Assembly: GCF_000027125.1 (NCBI RefSeq)
Contig: NC_017626.1
Direction: 5' to 3' (one strand)
DNA length: 64,000 bases
DNA from: Escherichia coli 042
Lineage (GTDB): Bacteria; Pseudomonadota; Gammaproteobacteria; Enterobacterales; Enterobacteriaceae
Shown here: positions 1,555 through 51,542 of the stretch, piece by piece
How positions within the stretch are numbered: the stretch's first letter is position 1
Layout of the letters: each line of letters starts with the position of its first letter
Translations under genes and position numbers: made by a program
The notes under the pieces: model-generated
Seen by the model: only the letters and a program-made list of their open reading frames with translations
Databases searched by the model: none
What the model was told of the DNA's origin: nothing

Positions 1555-4500
1555 TTTTTCGCCTCCTGTACCTGATCGCGACCTTCATCATCCAGCCAGT
1601 TAACGTTCTTCATCTTGCGGATCATGATGAATTCGTCGCGGTTCGAGCCGACGGTGCCGTAGTAGTTAAAGCCCCAGGCCAGCTGCGCGTAACCGCCAAT
1701 CATATGCGTTGGTTTCGGACAAACGCGGGTGACCGAGTTATGAATGCCGCCGCGCATGCCAGTTACTTCCGAACCAGGAATATTCATAATGCGTTCCTGG
1801 GCGTGATACATCATGGTCATACCCGGCGGTACACGTTGGCTGACCACCGCGCGGGCAGTCAGCGCGCCGTTGGCGTTAAACACTTCCACCCAGTCGTTAT
1901 CGACAATGGTCAGTTCACGGGCATCGGTTTCGCTGATCCAGACAATTGGTCCACCGCGAGAGAGCGTCAGCATTAGCAGGTTTTCACTGTAGGTTGAGTG
2001 AATGCCCCATTTCTGGTGCGGCGTCAGGAAGTTAAGTGCTTTTTCCGGGAAGCCGTTTGGCGGTATCTGGCGCATTTCACTGACGCTACGGGTGTCGATA
2101 GGCGGGCGATAAGCCACCAGGCTTTCACCAAAAGCACGCATCCACGGATGATCCTGATAAAGCTGCTGGCGTCCCGACAGCGTGCGCCACGGAATTAACT
2201 CATGAACGTTGGTGTATCCCGCGTTATAGGAGACGTGATCGCTTTCCAGACCAGACCATGTGGGGCTGGAGATAATTTTACGTGGCTGCGCCTGAATATC
2301 GCGAAAGCGAATCTTCTCGTCCTCTTTGTGCAGCGCCAGATGGGTATGTTCGCGTCCGGTGATCTCGCCCAGCGCCTGCCACGCTTTGACTGCAACATGA
2401 CCGTTGGTTTCCGGTGCCAGCGCCAGAATCACTTCTGATGCGTCAATGGCGGTGTCAATCAGCGGACGCCCCTGTGCTGGGCCTTCACGCTTGGTGTAGT
2501 TGAGTTTGCCGAGGAAATCGATTTCATCCTGGGTATTCCACGAAATCCCTTTACCGCCGTTGCCAAGTTTGTCCATCAATGGCCCGAGCGAGGTAAAGCG
2601 TTCATAGGTAGCAGGGTAGTCGCGTTCCACCGCCACAATATTGGGCGCAGTTTTACCTGGAATCAGATCGCATTCGCCTTTGCGCCAGTCGAGCACTTCA
2701 CACGGCTGTGAGAGTTCTGCCGGAGAGTCATGCAGCAGTGGTTGTAATACCACGTCGGTTTCTTTGCCAAGATGGCCCACGCACGCTTGCGAAAAGGCTT
2801 TGGCAATACCTTTGTAGATTTCCCAGTCGCTGCGTGATTCCCACGCCGGATCGACCGCCGCAGATAGGGGATGAATAAACGGATGCATATCCGAGGTGTT
2901 CATATCGTCTTTTTCGTACCAGGTGGCGGTGGGCAGAACGATATCGGAGAACAGGCAGGTACTGGACATACGGAAGTCGAGCGTCACCAGCAGGTCGAGC
3001 TTGCCTTCAATCGCCGCAGTTTGCCACTCGACTTCTTCTGGTTTGATCCCGTCGCTGGCACCGAGTTCCTGACCCTGAATCCCACTTTCGGTTCCCAGCA
3101 GATACTTCTGCATATACTCGTGGCCTTTGCCGGAGGAGCCAAGCAGGTTAGAACGCCAGACAAACAAATTACGCGGATGATTGCTGCCGCTATCTGGTTG
3201 TTCGCAGGCCATGCGTAAATCGCCCGAATTCAGCGCCTGGGCGGTAAATTCTGTGGGGGATAATCCGGCCTTGTCGGCTTCAGCTTTAATCCCGAGCGGG
3301 TTACGCCCCAGCTGCGGCGCAGAAGGTAGCCAGCCCATACGTTCGGCACGAACGTTGAAATCAATCAGATGACCGCTGTACTTACTGGCATCGGCGAGCG
3401 GTGAAAGTAACTCCTGAGCAGAGACTTTTTCATAGCGCCATTGGCTGGAATGATTGTAGAAAAACGAGGTGCTGTTCATCTGGCGCGGTGGTCGGTTCCA
3501 ATCGAGCGCAAAGGCCAGCGGCAACCAGCCGGTTTGCGGGCGCAGTTTTTCCTGACCGACATAGTGTGCCCAGCCGCCACCGCTTTGCCCGACACAACCG
3601 CAGAAGATCAGCATGTTGATCATTCCCCGGTAGTTCATGTCCATGTGGTACCAGTGGTTAACACCTGCGCCGAGGATAATCATCGAGCGTCCATGCGTTT
3701 TATGGGCAGTATCGGCAAATTCACGAGCGATGGTTTCAATATACTGGCGCGGCACACCGGTAATTTGCTCACCCCAGGCTGGGGTGTACGGTTTGATTTC
3801 AGCGTAATCTTTCGCGCTGTTTTCATCTTCCAGCCCGCGATCGAGGCCGTAATTCGCCAGTACCAAATCATAAACGCTGACCACCGGACAGGTGTTGCCA
3901 TCGGCTAATGTCAGGTTTTTAACGGGCAATTGGCGCACCTGGACCGGATTGTGTTTTACGCTGCGAAAATGCGGATTTTCAATGCCGCCAAAGTAGGGGA
4001 AGGCCACGCCTGCAACGGCATCATGTTGACCGAGCAGGGTTAATGACAATTCGGTTTCCGTACCGGCGGCAATAGATTCCAGATTCCATTTGCCTTTTTC
4101 TCCCCAGCGAAAACCAATCGAACCGTTCGGCACCACCAGTTCACCTGCGGTATTAACTGCCACGGTTTTCCACTGCGGATTATTGCTTTCGCCCAGTCCA
4201 TCCACCAGGTCAGATGCGCGGACCATGCGCCCGGGAACGTAGCTGCCGTCGTCGCGAGGTTCCAGCATTACCAGCATCGGCATGTCGCTGTAGCGGCGGC
4301 AGTAGTTGATAAAATAATCGCTGGGATTATCGAGATGAAACTCTTTTAAAATGACATGGCCCATTGCCATTGCCAGGGCACTATCAGTGCCTTGTTTCGG
4401 TGCCAGCCACTGGTCGCACAATTTGGCCACTTCAGAGTAGTCAGGGGTAATGGCGATGGTTTTAGTGCCTTTGTAGCGTACTTCGGTAAAGAAGTGGGCG

Positions 4501-28376: not shown

Positions 28377-30776
28377 TCAGATTTTCAGCGGTAACACACT
28401 GCTCATCCAGCCTGGAATTTCTTCGGCGGGCAGGGGGCGGGAAAAGAAATATCCCTGAATAACGCGACAGTGGATCTTGCGTAGCATCTCAAATTGCTCT
28501 TTGGTTTCGACGCCTTCCGCCACGACGGTTAAATTAAGGCTTTGCCCAATGCTGGTAATGGCTTCAAGTAAGGCAAGGATGCGTTTTTCGGTCAGACAAC
28601 GATCGACAAAACTTTTGTCAATTTTGATTTCCGTTACCGGAAGACTGACTAAGCGGGATAATCCGGAAAAGCCCGTGCCAAAATCATCTACCGATAAACC
28701 CACGCCCATATCGCGCAGGATCTGAATGCGCTTAAAGATTTCGGTATCGTGTTCCATCATCATGCTTTCCGTGATTTCCACCGTCAGCTGGTGGCCGTCA
28801 ATACCCCAGGCGTGCATTGCATCAGACACCTGATTAGGCAGTTGATTACTGCGAAAGTGCAGCGCCGACAAGTTAACGGATAACGCCGGGATATGAATAT
28901 TCTGGCTACGCCATTCTGCTAACTGACGGCAAGCTTCCGCGATGACCCAGCGCCCAATATTTTCGATTTCACCGATCTCTTCTGCGAGAGGAATAAACCG
29001 TGAAGGGGGCACATGACCATGCAGGGGATCGTGCCAGCGAGCAAGGGCTTCGATGCCGTACAGTTCACCCGTTTCTGCGAAGATTTGCGGCTGGTAAACC
29101 AGTTTCAGTTGGTTATTGCTAATTGCTTCTTTCAGCGCCGCGCCTAAAACCAAACGCTCTTTTACCATTTCGTTCATCGCCGGGCTGAAGAACTGCCAGC
29201 CGTTACCGCCATTTTTGCGAATAAAATCCATTGCATTGTGAGCAGTGGAGAGCAGGTAATCGCGGTTTTTACCCACGTCGTAGCTGATGCCAATGCTCAA
29301 GGTGAGCGGGAATGGCTTATCGTCAATCATTATCGGCTTGCTGACCACATTCCGTAGCTCATCGGCGATTTGCGTAATGTTACTGACGTCGTTTTCCAGG
29401 CTCACGAGGACAAACTGCGTACCTTCGATACGACAGAGATATTGATCCGGTTTGAGTTTTTCACGAAAGCGATTGACCACTTCCAGCAATGCCTGATCGG
29501 CCCACGCATAGCCAAGGCTATCAATCACATCCTGAATATGGTCAACACTGATGAGATAGACCACCGGAGAGACGGCTTTGTCGACCAGGTCATCGAGGTA
29601 ATTGTGCAGGTTATTGCGATTTGGCAGACCGGTCATCGGATCAAATTGGATGAGTTGTTCAATATGCTGACGGCTTTTTTCCTGTTCCAGCGCCAGCGCG
29701 GCCATATGCTGGCTGATATCTGCCACGCGTTCGATAAAGGCGCTGGTTTCTGCTCCTGACGAGGTTTTAATTTGCAGGATCCCCGCAGGCGCACCATCAC
29801 GCTGACGAATGGTCGCTGACCAGCTTTGCGCATTTTGAACTTCTGCACCGTGCGAAGATGACGCCCAGTGTATCGGCATCCCGTTGCGCAGCGCGAACAG
29901 CGAAACATGCGATTCGTTGAGTACAGATTCGATGTTACGACAAATGATTTCCCCCATTTCATGAAATGGCGGGCTGCTGCACATGGCGGCGAGAATATTG
30001 CCTTCAAGCTGGCGGATTTGCCGTTCTTCGGTGATATCCGAGAAGGTCATTACCAGGTTCTGCAGATGCGCGAGCACGTCATAAACCGGGCTGATAGAGG
30101 CTTTAATCCAGATTTTTTCACCGGTGCGCGTCAATAGCAGAAATTCGTCCTGATCGCGGGCGGTTTTCCAAAGCAACTGTTGTAAACGAATGCGGTTATC
30201 GGCAGGGAATTCAGGAATGTTCAGGAGTGAATCGGGCTGCATACCGCTGGCTTCGCTAATGCAGTAACCAAACATTTCGGTAAATGCGCGATTGCACTGC
30301 ACAATATGGCGTTCCGGATCGAGGACAATCACCGGTCGGTCGAGATGGTCAACGGCAATAATCAATTGTCGGGTCTGTTCTTTTTGCGCCATTTCTACGC
30401 TGGCATCCCGTACCAGCGCCAGGTAATAAATTTTACCCTCGGCGCTCACTTTCGATAGCGCAAAACGGGTCCAGATTTTACTGCCGTCTTTTTTCTCCAG
30501 CTGCAGCTCCCGACTCATCCCCTCGACGCGCGCTTTACCGCCTTCACGGTTGTGACGGATGTATTCAGGATGCGCGGGACGCAAATCCCGTGGAATCAGC
30601 ATATCAATGTTATTGCCAATGACTTCTTCACGTTTGTACCCCCAGAGCTTCTCTGCGGCGGGGTTGAAAAACATCACTTCATCATTTTCGTTAATTAACA
30701 CCGCGCCCATCATATTTTGCTCAAGGGCGGGGAAAAAAATGCCATCGGCGGCATTATCCGCATCGGTTAGCTTCAT
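28377..30776 (-). CDS. dosP: Heme/oxygen-sensing c-di-GMP phosphodiesterase (PAS-GGDEF-EAL)
   Basis: Start moved to ATG 30774-30776 (MKLTDADNAADGIFFPALEQ) with GAGG RBS; 799 aa. Confidence 0.92.
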   Translation of the reverse strand: MKLTDADNAADGIFFPALEQNMMGAVLINENDEVMFFNPAAEKLWGYKREEVIGNNIDMLIPRDLRPAHPEYIRHNREGGKARVEGMSRELQLEKKDGSKIWTRFALSKVSAEGKIYYLALVRDASVEMAQKEQTRQLIIAVDHLDRPVIVLDPERHIVQCNRAFTEMFGYCISEASGMQPDSLLNIPEFPADNRIRLQQLLWKTARDQDEFLLLTRTGEKIWIKASISPVYDVLAHLQNLVMTFSDITEERQIRQLEGNILAAMCSSPPFHEMGEIICRNIESVLNESHVSLFALRNGMPIHWASSSHGAEVQNAQSWSATIRQRDGAPAGILQIKTSSGAETSAFIERVADISQHMAALALEQEKSRQHIEQLIQFDPMTGLPNRNNLHNYLDDLVDKAVSPVVYLISVDHIQDVIDSLGYAWADQALLEVVNRFREKLKPDQYLCRIEGTQFVLVSLENDVSNITQIADELRNVVSKPIMIDDKPFPLTLSIGISYDVGKNRDYLLSTAHNAMDFIRKNGGNGWQFFSPAMNEMVKERLVLGAALKEAISNNQLKLVYQPQIFAETGELYGIEALARWHDPLHGHVPPSRFIPLAEEIGEIENIGRWVIAEACRQLAEWRSQNIHIPALSVNLSALHFRSNQLPNQVSDAMHAWGIDGHQLTVEITESMMMEHDTEIFKRIQILRDMGVGLSVDDFGTGFSGLSRLVSLPVTEIKIDKSFVDRCLTEKRILALLEAITSIGQSLNLTVVAEGVETKEQFEMLRKIHCRVIQGYFFSRPLPAEEIPGWMSSVLPLKI

Positions 30777-30800
30777 GATTACCTCTGCATCCTGGCGCAT

Positions 30801-32183
30801 CTAAAGACTGGCTTTCCAGAGTTCAACACGGTTTCTACCTCGTCTTTTGGCGATATACAGAGCTTCATCGGCTATTTGAATGAGGCGCTCATAGTCAGGA
30901 TGACCATTAAACATGGCGGCACCGATGGAAAGTGAGAGGGCAATATCTTCGCCGTTCGCGGCTTTCAGTTTGGTTTTCTCTACCCGACTGCGAATACGTT
31001 CTGCGGTACGTAACGTTTCGTTTTCAGATGCTTCAGTCAAAACAATGATAAATTCATCGCCCCCGTAGCGGAAAACATAATCACTACTGCGGACGTTGTC
31101 ATAAAAGGCCTGAGAGACTTTACGCAGAATTTCATCGCCAGTGTTATGGCCCCACGTATCGTTGATCTCTTTGAATTTATCAACGTCAATAATCAGCACT
31201 GACAGCGGTGTACCGGTCCGGTTGGCATGGGCAATTTCGCGTTTGAAGATCGTCGGTAGGAAACGGCGGTTAAGTAATTTCGTCAGGACATCCATACCGA
31301 CTTCGTGGCGCGATACTTCTTCAAACAATTCACGCAGCAAGGTAATAATCTGCGATACAGTATTTCTTATCTGTAATAGAAACTTCACCCGAAGACTTCT
31401 GTTATTCAAATTCCTGGTGTTACGCATGGTTTGATTGAAAATACCGTCGAAATCCTGAATCAGACGGGAGATATGGCCCACTTCGGCTATGCCGCTAAAA
31501 TAATGTCGACCTTTATGGTTAAACCACAGGCCAAAATCAGCCTGGCTTAAAGGCAAACTACTGCCTAAATCAGAATCCAGCAGGACTTTATAGATAATAT
31601 CTATTTCCCATGAAAGTAATGAGGCTATTTGCCGTTCTTTTTCTTCTTCGGCATTTTCCAGTAACGAGAAGATACGATAGTTTTCATCTTCCTTTGAGGC
31701 ACTACTGTCACTAAAGGTAAACGCGCGGGTCATCACTTCCATAGCGATATCAATACTGTTAATAGAGAAATGGTAGACCTGAAGTTTTTCTGCGGCGGAA
31801 TAATCCGAAGAGAAGATGACTGGATAGAGGATTTTTTTCAGCACCCGAAACCCCATCTCGACAATTTCTACCGGAATTCCTATGCGGGCATGCACTTCCG
31901 CGACGGTATGCTGGATTTGTATTAGCCTTTCGACATCGTCAACCTGGGCAGAAAGCACGTTAATAATCCAGCGTTCCATCGCACTTTTCAACTGCCGCTC
32001 AACTTGTTCATTACTCAAGAATTCTTCGGCATGCGGGTCGATACGGACAATTCGGTAAAACTCAATACTCAGATAATGGGCATGCGCAACGGCAATTTCC
32101 GCGGCTTTAGCACGAATGAGCGGATCTGCTTGTTCGACAAGCCCGGTCCACTCATCTTTCATTCTTTTAAAATACATCTCCAT
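30801..32183 (-). CDS. dosC: Heme-sensing diguanylate cyclase (globin-coupled sensor)
   Basis: 460 aa; C-terminal GGDEF domain (RYGGDEFIIV); immediately upstream of dosP. Confidence 0.92.
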   Translation of the reverse strand: MEMYFKRMKDEWTGLVEQADPLIRAKAAEIAVAHAHYLSIEFYRIVRIDPHAEEFLSNEQVERQLKSAMERWIINVLSAQVDDVERLIQIQHTVAEVHARIGIPVEIVEMGFRVLKKILYPVIFSSDYSAAEKLQVYHFSINSIDIAMEVMTRAFTFSDSSASKEDENYRIFSLLENAEEEKERQIASLLSWEIDIIYKVLLDSDLGSSLPLSQADFGLWFNHKGRHYFSGIAEVGHISRLIQDFDGIFNQTMRNTRNLNNRSLRVKFLLQIRNTVSQIITLLRELFEEVSRHEVGMDVLTKLLNRRFLPTIFKREIAHANRTGTPLSVLIIDVDKFKEINDTWGHNTGDEILRKVSQAFYDNVRSSDYVFRYGGDEFIIVLTEASENETLRTAERIRSRVEKTKLKAANGEDIALSLSIGAAMFNGHPDYERLIQIADEALYIAKRRGRNRVELWKASL

Positions 32184-32507
32184 AATTCACACCCTTATAA
32201 GGCTGGGAAAGCAGACGGAATCAAAACGAAACGCAACGTGCGAGGTCGACTAACTGCACCATATTCTCCTGAAATATGAAGATATACTGAAAACAAATAA
32301 GCGACTTAGGACAGTTTCAATCTACGCTACTGTTCTTCAGAAGAGTATAGCCCATCGTAATTATTTTTCGGTGACAGCGAATATCGTATGTTTTTTCATA
32401 TTCATACATTTTTATTAGGGGATTTATGACTGTTTAACTAAGTGTGGTTAATTGCGTAGTTAATTTGACTTAAGTAAGCATGATTACTAGTGGGATATTT
32501 CAAGAGG

Positions 32508-32541
32508 GTAACAAGCCGGGGGAAAAGCACCGGCTTGTTAC
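32508..32541. other. Perfect 12-bp stem-loop downstream of yddW
   Basis: GTAACAAGCCGG-GGGAAAAGCA-CCGGCTTGTTAC, 18 nt past the yddW stop on the minus strand; no adjacent U-tract. Confidence 0.5.
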
Positions 32542-32558
32542 AAAGTAAGAATGGGAGT

Positions 32559-33878
32559 TTAACTGCCCCAACGACTTTGCAGATAGCTGACCGCTTGTTG
32601 AGTCTGTGGCTTATTCAGATAGTCCTCACGGAACAAGATTGTGCCGCTAATTTCTGGCACGGCATCGTTAAGATCGAGCTGCTTTTTCAGTTCCGGTACG
32701 CCGCCGTTAATCATCCAGTCTGGCTCTATTTTTGAAGGTTCACCCACTTTATAGAAGGCGATACCGATATACAGGCGGGTCCTGGTCGGTTTAACGACAT
32801 CCGCCCACCATTTTGCCAAAACGTCATAACGTGCGGCACTCCGTGAGAACGGCCAGTAAATTTGGGGAGCAATGTAATCCAGCAATCCTTGTTCCACCCA
32901 TCGACGGGTGTCAGCGTAGGATTCGTCATAGGCTGCCGCGCCTCGGGTATCGGAACCGAGCGGATCGTGTGATCGGTTACGCCACACGCCTGCCGGGCTA
33001 ACGCCAAATTCGACTTCCGGCTTAATGCTTTTAATGGTGTGCGATACCTTCGCAATTAACTGCTGAGTATTGTTGCGCCGCCAGTCTGCTTTTGACGCAA
33101 ATGCGCCTCCGTATTTGCGGTACGTTTCGTTATCATTTAGCCGTGAACCCGGTGACTCAGTATAGAAATAGTCGTCAAACTGCACGCCATCTACCGGATA
33201 GCGGGAAACCACTTCCGCGACTATTGATGTGATCCAGTCCTGAACTTCAGGGATGCCCGGGTCGAGGACAAAGCGATCGCCGGACGTTCTGATCCAGTCG
33301 CGGTGTTGCACATAGACGCTCGCTGGTTGTTGAGCCAGAGTGCTATTCAGTTCCCTGATAGTACCGGGCTTCGTATTAACCGATACGCGATAGGGGTTAA
33401 ACCATGCGTGTACTTTCATCCCACGCTTGTGGGCTTCGTCGAGCATGAATTGCAGCGGATCGTAACCTGGATTTTCACCAATCTTTCCGGTCATAAGATC
33501 GGACCACGGCAAAATTTTTGATGGCCACAGGGCGGTACCGTCCGGCTTGACCTGGAAAAAGACCGTGTTTATGCCGAGACGTTGCAGATGATCCAGTTTG
33601 TCGATCATCGCCTGTTGTTGTACACGGGCCCGGCTGGTGGGGTTACTAATGTTAACCGAGGAAACCGGTGGCCAGTCGAGGCGAGACACCGTGGCCAGCC
33701 AGATGCCACGCATCGGTTGTGACGATTGTTGCGTCGTGGCTGGTGGCTTTGAACCCGCTGGTGGTGTCACCATGGACTCTGGAGGCGTGTTTTTACAACT
33801 ACACAGTAAAAGTGCCAGTGCAACCAGTATCGCTGGTCTTCTAATCGCTAATTTCTCGTTTCGGGAGCAGATATCCAT
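32559..33878 (-). CDS. yddW: Putative glycoside-hydrolase-like lipoprotein
   Basis: 439 aa with lipoprotein signal MDICSRNEKLAIRRPAILVALALLLCSCKN. Confidence 0.85.
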   Translation of the reverse strand: MDICSRNEKLAIRRPAILVALALLLCSCKNTPPESMVTPPAGSKPPATTQQSSQPMRGIWLATVSRLDWPPVSSVNISNPTSRARVQQQAMIDKLDHLQRLGINTVFFQVKPDGTALWPSKILPWSDLMTGKIGENPGYDPLQFMLDEAHKRGMKVHAWFNPYRVSVNTKPGTIRELNSTLAQQPASVYVQHRDWIRTSGDRFVLDPGIPEVQDWITSIVAEVVSRYPVDGVQFDDYFYTESPGSRLNDNETYRKYGGAFASKADWRRNNTQQLIAKVSHTIKSIKPEVEFGVSPAGVWRNRSHDPLGSDTRGAAAYDESYADTRRWVEQGLLDYIAPQIYWPFSRSAARYDVLAKWWADVVKPTRTRLYIGIAFYKVGEPSKIEPDWMINGGVPELKKQLDLNDAVPEISGTILFREDYLNKPQTQQAVSYLQSRWGS

Positions 33879-34008
33879 ATGTGCTGGTTTCCGGTAAACA
33901 GATGTGCGCTCATTCTCGTACTTATCCCGGTTAAGTCAATACGACAGCAAGCACGAAAAAGGGAGCGATGAATTATCGCTCCCTTATCTTATAACCATTC
34001 AGACATGG

Positions 34009-35544
34009 TTAGTGTTTCTTGTCATTCATCACAATATAGTGTGGTGAACGTGCACGCGGGTGCAGGAAGAAGTGACCTTTTGGTGCGTTCTGACTGTTGA
34101 TTGGCTCCAGAGTGACGCCGGTATTCCCTTTGCCTTTACGATCATGAACAGCATAGAGAATAAAGGGCAGGGCAAGTACCACCAGGAAACTAACGACCAG
34201 TAATTCAACATACATATCGGTAGAGTCACCCTGGATGTTATCCGGCGGCAGGAAGGAAACAATAAACGCCATAATTGAAGTCAGCAGACCGACAACAGCC
34301 ACGACCAGTTTCACCCCTTTACCACCAGGGATATTAAATGTGCGTTTTAAGTCAGGATGTTTAAGAACCAACACAATGTAGCCAATAAACAGCATGAAAT
34401 AAGCACACAGATAAATCACCACCGTCAGCGCCAGTGCGATCAGGAAGGACATGTTGTTACCGCCACCGGTATTGGTGAGGATGATCAACGCGATAGAAGT
34501 AATCACCAGCTGCGAAATGACCAGCGTTACCGGTACGCCATTTTTGTTCATTTTAGCGAATGCTGCTGGCAGCAGGTTTTTCTGCGCTGTGACATACATC
34601 CCGCGAGAAGGACCAACAATCCAGGAGGCGATTTCCGCCAGAACACCCAGCAACAGCAGTGCGGAGATCACGCGAACCGTCCACTCAATTTCCGGTGCCA
34701 CATGGGACATCAGAACGGTAAAGGTTTGCATTACACCTGCGGAGAGGTTGATTTCATTACCCGGAATGACCATCGCAATAGACAAACCGCCAACAGAGCT
34801 TAAGCAGATTGCCGCCACCATCAGCAGTAACATAGCCAGTGGATAGTCGCGCCCTGGATTGCTCATTTCATTGACGTGGGTTGCGGAAGCTTCAACGCCC
34901 ATATAACTCAAAATGAAGGCAACAAATACAACCAGGGTGCCCACTTTAGAGAAGTCAGGGAAGAAGGTCTTCGAATCCATTTCGATAGCAACGGGGGCAC
35001 CGGAGTGCAGATAAATAGCCGCTAATGCGATCAAAATAAATGCAGGTAACAGGATACCGGCGAAGAAGCCAACTTTAGCAATTCGCGCCGTGTATTTCGT
35101 GCCACCAAACTGCGTTAATGCCAGCGCCCAAAGAATGATGAGTGCTGCAATAGTTTTGGTAATGGGGTCTTCATTCAGCGCTGGCCATTTCAGGATGTAG
35201 GAGAGTGCCCCTAACACGAAATAGAGCATCGGAATAAAACCAATGGCGATTTGCAGATAGCCAAATGAGATCGCTGCAAATCCCCACCTCGGCCCCAGAG
35301 TATTTGATACCCAGGCGAAGACACCACCTTCTTCCCAGCCGTCGACGGTGGCCATTTCCGCAGCACAAAGTCCCACGGGAATAAACCATAAAATCCCGCC
35401 TAATAGCAGGAAGAAGACTAATGAAAAGCCCGATGTTGCGAAGGTAGGGTATTCATAAACAGCCATTACCATCGATGCCGTTATGGCAAAGAATCCGAGT
35501 AATGTGAGCTGCTTAGCTTTACCTGTCTGTACTGATGTAGCCAT
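34009..35544 (-). CDS. gadC: Glutamate:GABA antiporter (APC family)
   Basis: 511-aa polytopic membrane protein immediately downstream of gadB. Confidence 0.92.
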
Positions 35545-35653
35545 ATTATCCCCCTAAAACGGTATTCCTGTCGGAACCGCACCTGTTTTGTTCTGAAGCG
35601 TATTCAGAACAATATTTTCCGTTGCTAATGCCAGTGAACAGACTTTGGAAATT

Positions 35654-35679
35654 GTCCCGAAACGGGTTCGTTTCGGGAC
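35654..35679 (-). other. Intercistronic hairpin between gadB and gadC
   Basis: GTCCCGAAACG-GGTT-CGTTTCGGGAC, perfect 11-bp stem 20 nt after the gadB stop; no U-tract. Confidence 0.5.
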
Positions 35680-35699
35680 ACCGTTACCGTTAAACGTTA

Positions 35700-49142: not shown

Positions 49143-49262
49143 CGGAGGTATATATCTTATAACGAGCAGTTTAATTTAGCACATGTGAGTAAATTGCGCG
49201 ACAATGGTCAATGAGGAATTCTTCTGCTGTGCGGATGACAGCAGAAGAAATGAGGAGGCGAA

Positions 49263-51542
49263 TTAATTTGATGGTTCTAATTCAACCGGAATACTTTTAT
49301 AGCCAGGAATGCCACTTAATGGATCGTGGTTATCAAGTGTTAGCATGTGATTCGATTCTGGAAAATAGGTCACCAGTGAGCGGTCAGCCATAGGGTAAAT
49401 GACCACTTTTAATCTATCCATGCGGCGTGAGCTTCGCTTACCGTCTGGCGTAAGCGCAATAAGATTAACTCTTTCGCCGTTTTTTACACGGCAAATTTTA
49501 GCTTGTTTAGCACTCATAAAGACCACATCTCGTTGACCGAATACCCCTCGATAGCGATCATCCATACCATAAATCGTCGTGTTGTACTGATCGTGACTGC
49601 GTACTGTCGCCATGACTAGCTTACTGTTAAACGCTGAAGAGGGATCTTCTAACAGCCCTTTACTGGTAATGAAATTAGCCTTACCTGACGGCGTCATCCA
49701 GCGCCTTTCAGCAGCTGCATTTATCAGGTGAAAACCACCGGGATGACGGATGCGCTGGTTATAGTCGGCGAACTCTGGCAGCACAGCTTCAATGTCATTG
49801 CGAATGCGATCATAATCTTCCACCAGATACTCCCAGGCTACCACGCTCTGGGGTAGTGCAGCCTGCGCGATTCCCGCGACCACTGCACACTCTGATTTCA
49901 GCATTACACCGGCGGGTTTTAACACGCCACGCGAGGCATGAATCATCGACATTGAATCCTCAACGGTTACCGCCTGCGCACCACTTTTTTGCATGTCAAT
50001 CTCGCTACGTCCCAGAACCGGCAGAATATAGCTATGCTGTGCGGTCAGCAGATGAGAGCGGTTAAGCTTAGTGGCTACGTGTACCGCCAAATCTAATTGC
50101 GTTAACGGTACAGCGCTCGCTTCCCGATCTGGCATTGCCAGTGCAAAGTTGCCCCCCATGCAGATCAATGCTCGAGCCTGCCCCGTACATATTGCTTGCA
50201 TGCTGGCAATTGCAGCATGTCCAGGTGCATGAGGTGGGGTGAAACCATAGCGCTCACCCAGGCGAGCCAGAAACTCTGCAGACGGTTTCTCGGTGATACC
50301 GACGGTTCGGTCGCCCTGTACATTAGAGTGACCACGTAGTGGGCAGATACCTGCACCAGGCTTGCCAATGTTACCTTTCATCAACAGCAGATTGACCAGT
50401 TGCTGTACGTTTTGGGTACCATGTTCGTGCTGAGTGATCCCCATTCCGTAACAGATAATGGTGCGTTCGGCAGCGGCATATGCATCAGCCAGTTCGGCGA
50501 TTTGGGTCTGACTTAGTCCAGAAATACGTTCGATATCTTTCCACTCGGAATTGAGAACGTCACGGCGTAGCTCGTCAAAGCCGACGGTATGCGTTTGAAT
50601 AAATTCGTCATCCAGCAATGAGGGCCGACCTGCGGCGCTTGCAGCATCATCGCGCTCAATTAACAGGCGCATCATCCCCTTGAGCAACGCCATATCGCCA
50701 CCAATGCGCACGTTATAGTAGGCACTGGCCAACTGAGTCTCAGAGTTCGTCAGCATTTCAAACGGATTTTGCGGTGCGGTAAATCGCTCCAGGCCACGTT
50801 CCTGTAGAGGGTTGATGGCGATCATTTTCGCTCCCCGTTTCACTAAAGCGCGCAACGAAGTCAGCATGCGAGGGTGGTTTGTACCAGGGTTATGCCCAAT
50901 GCAAATGACTAAATCGCATTTCTCAAAGTCTTCCAGCAACACGGTGCCTTTACCCACACCGATACTCGCTGCCAAACCCACGCTGGTCGGTTCATGGCAC
51001 ATGTTGGAACAGTCGGGAAAGTTATTGCTCCCGTATTCACGGGCAAAAAGCTGATAAAGAAAGGCAGCTTCATTGGAAGTGCGCCCCGAAGTATAGAATT
51101 CAACCTGATTGGGATCACTATAGCTTTGAAGGCGTGCGCCTATTTCGTCGAAAGCTTGTTGCCAGCTTAATGGCTTGTAACAGTCGCTGACGGCATCATA
51201 TTTCAAAGGCTGAGTGAGACGCCCCGCAGCTTCAAGCTCGTGATCTCCCCAGGTAAGTAATGATTGAACCGTATTCTCAGCAAAGAAAGAGGCATTTACC
51301 TGCTTATCCGTGACTTCCCAGGCGATTGCTTTTGCGCCGTTTTCACAAATGTCGAATGACGCACTGTGCTTAGGATCTGGCCATGCACATCCAGGACAGT
51401 CAAAGCCCTCTGGCTTATTCATGTCAAACATGGCAATAACATCCTGGCGTATATCCATCTGCTTACGTACTGCATTCGCTACGGATTTAACAGCACCCCA
51501 ACCACCGGCAGCACCCTGGTAGGATTCAATTTTTTTCTTCAT
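49263..51542 (-). CDS. ydeP: Molybdopterin oxidoreductase family protein (FdhF-like), acid-resistance associated
   Basis: 759 aa, [20 protein letters not shown]; N-terminal Cys cluster (CPGCAW) and molybdopterin-binding domains. Confidence 0.9.

Follow-up and report, generated by a model that had tools for sequence, protein, structure and literature searches.

Between the stop codon of digH (yddW) and the ATG of dosC, the stretch of Escherichia coli 042 DNA analysed here (64,000 nt, hereafter the window) holds a gap of exactly 375 bp (32184-32558), with a hairpin next to its digH end. On the minus strand, the order of transcription is gadC (34009-35544), digH, the gap, dosC and dosP (28377-30800), and within this order the hairpin stands between digH and yddY, an annotated 13-codon ORF that the sequence-only reading of the locus had not mentioned. 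That reading had described the gap as the promoter region of dosCP, and had offered three options for the hairpin: a Rho-assisted or a stabilising element insulating dosCP from yddW read-through, or a protein-binding palindrome. Two questions follow: to which of the two flanking genes does the hairpin belong, and what does it do there?

We could confirm the size of the gap as well as its AT-rich character, with a GC content of 0.28-0.39 over 32240-32480. Its description as the dosCP promoter region stood only in part: a dosC promoter core does lie in it, together with the digH 3' UTR and its hairpin, yddY and ~150 nt of dosC 5' UTR (Table 1). Over 601 bp that include the hairpin, the window and strain Ecol_316 are 100% identical.

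Table 1. Features of the digH-dosC region, given in window coordinates, with mean pairwise identities among Escherichia species.
Feature	Coordinates	Strand	Description and basis	Mean pairwise identity
digH (yddW) CDS	32559..33878	minus	family-10-like glycosyl hydrolase; ORF, RefSeq name, Pfam GHL10 E = 1.6e-135	
digH stop-to-hairpin spacer (3' UTR)	32542..32558	minus	17 nt, ACUCCCAUUCUUACUUU, pyrimidine-rich, not A-rich, 3 A	0.87
Stem-loop	32508..32541	minus	5' arm 32541-32530, loop 32529-32520 (UGCUUUUCCC), 3' arm 32519-32508	arms 0.77 and 0.85; loop 0.67
C-rich, G-poor, unstructured untranslated tract, candidate rut region	32388..32507	minus	composition and predicted fold	
~85 columns after the hairpin			with indels	0.40
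Promoter-upstream region and -10				0.90
dosC promoter core	32330..32350	minus	sigma-S-like extended -10 CTATACT 32344-32350; approximate start 32330-32337	
Leader to yddY ATG				0.92
yddY	32221..32262	minus	13-codon upstream ORF in the dosC leader; AGGAG Shine-Dalgarno; PMC6001520	
dosC	30801..32183	minus	ORF, RefSeq; Pfam protoglobin, DosC_2nd, GGDEF	

Structure, copy number and related palindromes

By an inverted-repeat check, the arms GTAACAAGCCGG (32508-32519) and CCGGCTTGTTAC (32530-32541) were found to be complementary at 12 of 12 positions and 10 nt apart, so that the perfect 12-bp hairpin with an N10 spacer first noticed by eye is indeed present. With up to three mismatches allowed, the inverted repeat (32508-32541) had one match in the 64-kb window, and none of 100 shuffled controls gave such a match. 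Folded as digH-sense RNA, the hairpin reached -19.6 kcal/mol (z = -6.6), a stability attained by none of 200 shuffled sequences, and the RNA of the opposite strand folded at -22 kcal/mol. The base of the stem is AU-rich (GUAACAA/UUGUUAC) and its top GC-rich. RefSeq annotates no feature under the match, and a search of Rfam 15 over 31500-33200 at E <= 10 returned two chance-level matches only, of 20 bits each against a gathering threshold of 50 bits. Also, a literature search on yddW found no paper describing the hairpin or the digH 3' end.

We then counted how often such a sequence occurs. Of 5,426 complete E. coli genomes, 5,393 have a match to the 42-nt stretch around the hairpin, with a median of one place per genome and a maximum of two (E <= 10, 11-nt words). 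By offset from the yddY coordinates, the hairpin corresponds to about 1,567,452-1,567,486 on the minus strand of U00096.3. Looking for the palindrome elsewhere in the genome, as had been suggested, thus revealed no further family of copies. We considered a REP, MITE or similar repeat and rejected it, because the hairpin sequence is single-copy. Like REP/BIME elements, the hairpin is an extragenic palindrome at a gene 3' end with a possible exonuclease-blocking role; these elements differ in forming a multi-copy family with a shared consensus. A REP-like pair does occur in the window at 16994-17055 (CTTATCCGGCCTACAA), and its sequence is unrelated to that of the digH hairpin.

As a class, perfect 12-bp hairpins are over-represented in the window, with four seen against ~0.04 expected (a rough estimate, giving a ~100-fold excess), and three of the four lie close to a gene 3' end. 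Besides the one described here, these hairpins are found at 49219-49249, 14 nt past the stop codon of a minus-strand ORF of 759 aa (49263-51542), at 20812-20839, between two minus-strand ORFs, and at 35653-35680 (minus strand), where the spacer between gadB and gadC holds UGUCCCGAAACG-AACC-CGUUUCGGGACA. The gadB-gadC hairpin shares with that of digH a perfect 12-bp stem and a U-poor tail (AUUUCCAAAG), but differs in its 4-nt loop, its unrelated sequence and its place within an operon, between genes that are transcribed together. Acting as an attenuator or stabiliser inside the operon, it could adjust the gadB:gadC ratio.

Position of the hairpin relative to digH and dosC

In the digH-sense RNA, 17 nt separate the stop codon of digH from the stem, a distance large enough for the stem to escape the terminating ribosome. 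On the other side, a dosC 5' UTR of 147 nt has been reported in a transcriptome study of BL21(DE3) (PMC5435950). Mapped via the BL21 sequence, this UTR places the dosC start near 32330-32337, just downstream of CTATACT (32344-32350), a motif that is invariant across Escherichia species and is probably the sigma-S-type extended -10 of dosC. The hairpin is located ~170-180 bp upstream of this start. Given its distances from the digH stop and from the dosC start, we conclude that the hairpin is a feature of the digH 3' UTR, outside the dosC promoter and leader, and not an element of the dosC upstream region as had first been proposed.

Natural deletions agree with this assignment. First, in an Escherichia genome that lacks dosCP and in which osmC converges on digH (L010), the hairpin is still attached to digH, in a weaker form (-12.8 kcal/mol). 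Second, in ~20% of complete E. coli genomes (~1,070 of 5,413 records), the dosC end of the query was not covered, and the sampled records of this group (H25-H29, five of five) break at window position 32225, just after yddY. The hairpin was intact in N17 and Ecol_244, the two that were aligned among the records without the dosC end, where dosC is annotated only as a C-terminal remnant.

These genomes also bear on the fate of dosCP itself. In N17, the dosC remnant stands directly upstream of dosP, and in deletions of this type the conserved promoter and leader would drive dosP without DosC. The loss of dosC or dosCP has occurred repeatedly and by different routes, namely the break at 32225, the whole loss in L010 and a deletion in MS20673, where an IS1 sits inside the left arm of the hairpin and the associated deletion reaches sra. 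The dosCP deletion of L010 ends ~7 nt past the stem. That the hairpin might be a rearrangement hotspot was considered and rejected, as there are only two events (MS20673 and L010), with different mechanisms, which we judged to be a coincidence.

The dosC side of the gap has features of its own. The protein product of yddY, flanked by dosC and yddW, has been detected by chromosomal epitope tagging (VanOrsdel 2018, Table 1; PMC6001520), and the ORF lies inside the dosC 5' UTR. In four other Escherichia species or clades (L011-L014, at about 3085-3100), yddY has only 3 codons (MVP, MVL or MVR, followed by a stop), and its Shine-Dalgarno sequence and first seven bases (AGGAGAATATGGTGC) are invariant there too. 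A 3-codon ORF with invariant initiation signals suggests that translation initiation at yddY is conserved rather than the peptide. Between the yddY stop and the dosC ATG, and overlapping the ribosome-binding region of dosC, we noticed an imperfect palindrome, TTCACACCCTTATAAGGCTGGGAA (32186-32209, 88% complementary). The corresponding RNA, CCUUAUAAGG, could sequester the AAGGG Shine-Dalgarno sequence of dosC, and the palindrome might couple dosC translation to that of yddY.

Upstream of the dosC -10, Escherichia species share ~90% identity over 80-90 bp. We consider a short inverted repeat of this region, GTATG-N13-CATAC (within GTATGAATATGAAAAAACATACGATATT, at ~32380-32415 on the minus strand), a candidate regulator site for dosCP, and the region is far better conserved than the spacer adjacent to the hairpin. 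In a preprint, PhoQ/PhoP-dependent activity induced by low Mg2+ was reported for the yddY upstream region (PMC11429745). A search for PhoP boxes in the gap gave a sole match, with 3 mismatches, at chance level (74 matches vs 69 expected).

Tail sequence, conservation and competing readings

Intrinsic terminators have a U-rich tract of ~7-9 nt directly behind the stem. A stable stem-loop near the gene end is present (12-14 bp, -19.6 to -23.9 kcal/mol), without such a tract. The tails that follow the hairpin are CCCUCUUGAAAUAU on the digH strand and AAAGUAAGAAUG on the other strand, neither of them a U-tract, and a terminator scan of 31900-32900 found 0 sites, in line with the early remark that a U-tract was lacking. 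The E. coli tail CCCUCUUG has 3 U in 8 nt and starts with three C residues past the stem, and the tails CAUCAACG (L011-L013) and CCCUGCAA (L014) have 0-1 U in 8 nt. Since none of the lineages sampled has a U-tract, the hairpin lacks the defining trait of an intrinsic terminator.

Canonical terminators do occur nearby and in relatives. At the end of gadC, 1.4 kb away, GGGAGCGAU-N5-AUCGCUCCC is followed by UUUUU (33959-33985). The digH hairpin resembles this terminator in size, energy and closeness to the stop codon, but differs from it by the missing U-tract, the AU-rich base of its stem and a tail that starts with C. Moreover, digH orthologues in Enterobacter, Lelliottia and Rahnella have canonical terminators at the equivalent position, with GC stems and U6-U8. 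A crude look for hairpins behind digH at 80 Enterobacterales loci was noisy and yielded two clear cases only, these canonical terminators and the U-less hairpin of Escherichia.

A weak, non-canonical intrinsic terminator or pause hairpin would release part of the transcripts Rho-independently at the CCCUCUU tail, perhaps aided by NusA/NusG, with the rest reading on towards dosCP. Such an element would have the right location, an energy (-19 to -24 kcal/mol) typical of terminators, counterparts at the same site in Enterobacter, Rahnella and Lelliottia, and the 3 U of the E. coli tail in its favour. However, the tail varies in U content between lineages, its three leading C residues are expected to give a stable RNA:DNA hybrid, an AU-rich base below a GC-rich top is the reverse of what efficient terminators have, and the consensus scan finds none. 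We therefore regard this reading as unlikely.

To see what is kept in the hairpin, we compared nine E. coli lineages and five other Escherichia loci. The allele of the window, with 12 bp and N10, is rare, a match of >=99% to the 42-nt stretch being limited to 35 genomes. In K-12 and the majority of the sampled lineages, the loop is UGCUUUACCCA, an 11-nt spacer whose ends pair (U-A, G-C), so that the stem has 14 bp, the loop 7 nt and the fold an energy of -23.9 kcal/mol. Across the nine E. coli lineages, five loop/spacer variants were found on a nearly fixed stem. The four other dosC-adjacent species or clades (L011-L014) keep the hairpin 15-17 nt after the digH stop, with an A-U to G-C replacement at the third pair and several G.U wobbles, and with up to four extra inner pairs in L011. 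In all ten dosC-adjacent lineages, the minimum free energy ranges from -19.0 to -23.9 kcal/mol. K-12 (L001) also differs in the spacer downstream, where it lacks 12 bp (AATTAACTACGC, 32448-32459) located between two AATTAAC direct repeats of the window strain, apparently a slippage-type indel in a poorly conserved spacer.

In a hand-corrected alignment, pairing was kept in 171 of 182 cells when read as digH-sense RNA and in 162 of 182 as antisense RNA, with 12 G.U cells (~8 independent events) for the former and 3 (3 events) for the latter. In the uncorrected alignment, pairing was 93.9% in register and fell to 33-51% when the 3' partner columns were slid. Only two pairs changed on both sides, and the covariation score did not exceed its shuffle control (62 of 500 shuffles reached the observed value). 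Hence we rely on conservation relative to the flanks, on the kept stability and on the strand asymmetry. In strain 4069, the outer stem contains a wobble and a mismatch, and a loop C to G change adds an inner G-C pair, for a total of -23.2 kcal/mol. An in-register compensatory change from A-U to G-C in this strain was considered and rejected, since the positions examined pair by pair are a G.U wobble and an A.C mismatch. Strain MFDS1016424 (E. coli) has an A.G mismatch in the stem. Together, these data suggest that it is the structure of the hairpin that is kept rather than its sequence, and that it is selected as RNA of the digH strand, with thin covariation.

If the hairpin had no current function, being either a former terminator in decay or a palindrome that arose by chance and is carried along among closely related genomes, covariation statistics within the shuffle controls would be expected, as would the mismatches tolerated in MFDS1016424, 4069 and L014 and the much weaker copy (-12.8 kcal/mol) of the lineage that deleted dosCP. 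Against this, the adjacent 85 columns have diverged to an identity of 0.40 with indels over the same evolutionary distances and the hairpin has not, the stability of the strain 4069 hairpin is restored by a second-site change, and perfect 12-bp hairpins in the window show the ~100-fold excess and preference for gene 3' ends described above. We find it rather unlikely that the hairpin is idle.

The stem and the 17-nt spacer are conserved like coding sequence (0.77-0.87), which seems to exceed what a generic exonuclease block would need. Such conservation would suit a 3'-UTR regulatory or processing hairpin for an RNA-binding protein or nuclease (e.g. ProQ or RNase III), acting independently of Rho to set the fate of digH mRNA or to split a digH-dosCP co-transcript. 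In size, a near-perfect duplex of 14 bp falls among the structured 3' ends bound by ProQ/RNase III-type proteins. On the other hand, no Rfam family matches above threshold, the loop sequence is free to vary, and the conservation of the spacer may reflect the short evolutionary distances sampled. We hold this role to be quite improbable.

A palindrome of double-stranded DNA to which a dimer regulating dosCP or digH binds, as operator or far-upstream activator site, would account for the perfect 12-bp dyad of the window strain. The AT-rich gap does hold regulatory DNA, with PhoQ/PhoP-dependent promoter activity reported for the yddY upstream region (PMC11429745) and SELEX peaks of RNA polymerase holoenzyme reported in and near the yddV-yddW spacer (PMC5493296). 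But the hairpin is distant from both promoters, as it follows digH and stands ~170-180 bp away from the dosC start. Its arms are spaced by either 10 or 11 bp, with a variable sequence between them (five variants in nine E. coli lineages), and the stem stays at -19 to -24 kcal/mol where single arm bases change. The 12 G.U cells break the DNA dyad yet keep RNA pairing, vs 3 in the opposite direction, although these are few independent events. Its inner core GCCGG/CCGGC is GC-rich, as is typical of RNA stems, the palindrome is found nowhere else in the genome, and it is retained, though weaker (-12.8 kcal/mol), where dosCP is deleted. On balance these features weakly disfavour a protein-binding palindrome, and a regulator site of this kind seems very improbable to us.

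The downstream tract and the 3' end of digH

What follows the stem is a tract with a strand-specific excess of C over G. The first 80 nt after the hairpin contain 20 C and 7 G, and their C/G ratio of 2.86 is among the highest 0.3% when all 80-nt windows of both strands of the 64 kb are counted. K-12 reaches 5.5 and four other Escherichia loci 1.6-2.8, so that the excess is shared by these loci even though the sequence of the tract is poorly conserved (identity 0.40). Moreover, the predicted fold of the 120 nt behind the stem shows hardly any structure (-4.9 kcal/mol, open centroid, z = +0.9).

These properties recall a known class of transcript ends. Dar and Sorek (2018) described Rho-dependent transcripts whose precise steady-state 3' ends lie right after stable stem-loops, with reduced U, no upstream A-tract and a C-over-G composition downstream, and whose tails are trimmed to the stem by PNPase and RNase II (PMC6061677). 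For this class, rut sites have been localised to the C-over-G tract immediately downstream of such stem-loops. The digH hairpin has the sequence features of these protective stem-loops: a stable stem of terminator-range energy, neither a U-rich tail nor an A-tract, and a C-over-G tract downstream. It differs in the way it was assigned, namely by sequence, whereas the class was defined experimentally (3' end, bicyclomycin-sensitive read-through, trimming in pnp/rnb).

As a U-less stable stem followed by an unstructured C-over-G tract matches these features, we propose that the hairpin is the 3'-terminal stem-loop of digH mRNA, protecting a Rho-terminated transcript from exonucleases and insulating dosCP, a reading that we favour with modest confidence. 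RNA polymerase leaving digH would transcribe the stem-loop and then the untranslated, unstructured, C-rich and G-poor tract, onto which Rho could load. Transcription would stop diffusely in the ~100-170 nt that precede the dosC promoter, and PNPase and RNase II, working 3'-to-5', would trim the ragged tail to the base of the stem. By blocking the exonucleases, the stem would leave a stabilised message with a mature digH 3' end near 32505-32508, which is about 1,567,449-1,567,452 in U00096.3 by the offset used above. The net effect would be to keep digH transcription out of the dosCP unit, which would be transcribed from its own promoter, probably of sigma-S type. The sequences show how the hairpin is built, where it lies and how well it is conserved, as well as the missing U-tract and the downstream composition; from these we infer Rho loading, the termination zone, exonuclease trimming and insulation. 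Of the three options first offered, the Rho-assisted and the stabilising one, taken together, are thus favoured by the stable stem, the missing U-tract and the C-over-G tract, and the protein-binding one is weakly disfavoured.

Two considerations temper the proposed Rho-terminated, trimmed digH 3' end. First, the C-over-G tract is also AT-rich promoter-upstream DNA, so that its composition may have other causes. Second, digH transcription is perhaps too weak for termination or stabilisation to matter. Neither yddW nor digH or dosC turned up in the searched parts of the supplements to Adams 2021, TERMITe 2025 and SMRT-Cappable-seq 2018, and for Adams 2021 yddY and the coordinates gave no entry either. 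These absences are uninformative, because the tables searched may be truncated and digH is probably weakly expressed.

A complex in which DosC and DosP occur with Rho, PNPase and RNase E has been reported (Tuckerman 2011, cited in PMC12360218). One could imagine that the hairpin and its equally conserved 17-nt leader form a regulated gate, in which condition-dependent Rho/PNPase action sets digH read-through into dosCP and the oxygen/c-di-GMP sensor pair would feed back on its own upstream read-through, but we give this scenario hardly any weight.

The gap can now be described as a digH 3' UTR with its hairpin, a poorly conserved C-over-G spacer, and a highly conserved promoter and leader with yddY. 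The class of stem-loop is already known, and its digH instance is new and ordinary; judging from sequence and its evolution, it appears to be a clean, evolutionarily supported example of U-less protective stem-loops. Its importance beyond annotation is little, but it offers a test case for predictors of terminators and 3' ends, which mostly depend on U-tracts. If confirmed, the proposed Rho-terminated, stem-protected end would give a defined transcript end to digH, a cell-division glycosidase gene, and would mean that dosCP is insulated from digH by Rho, without an intrinsic terminator.
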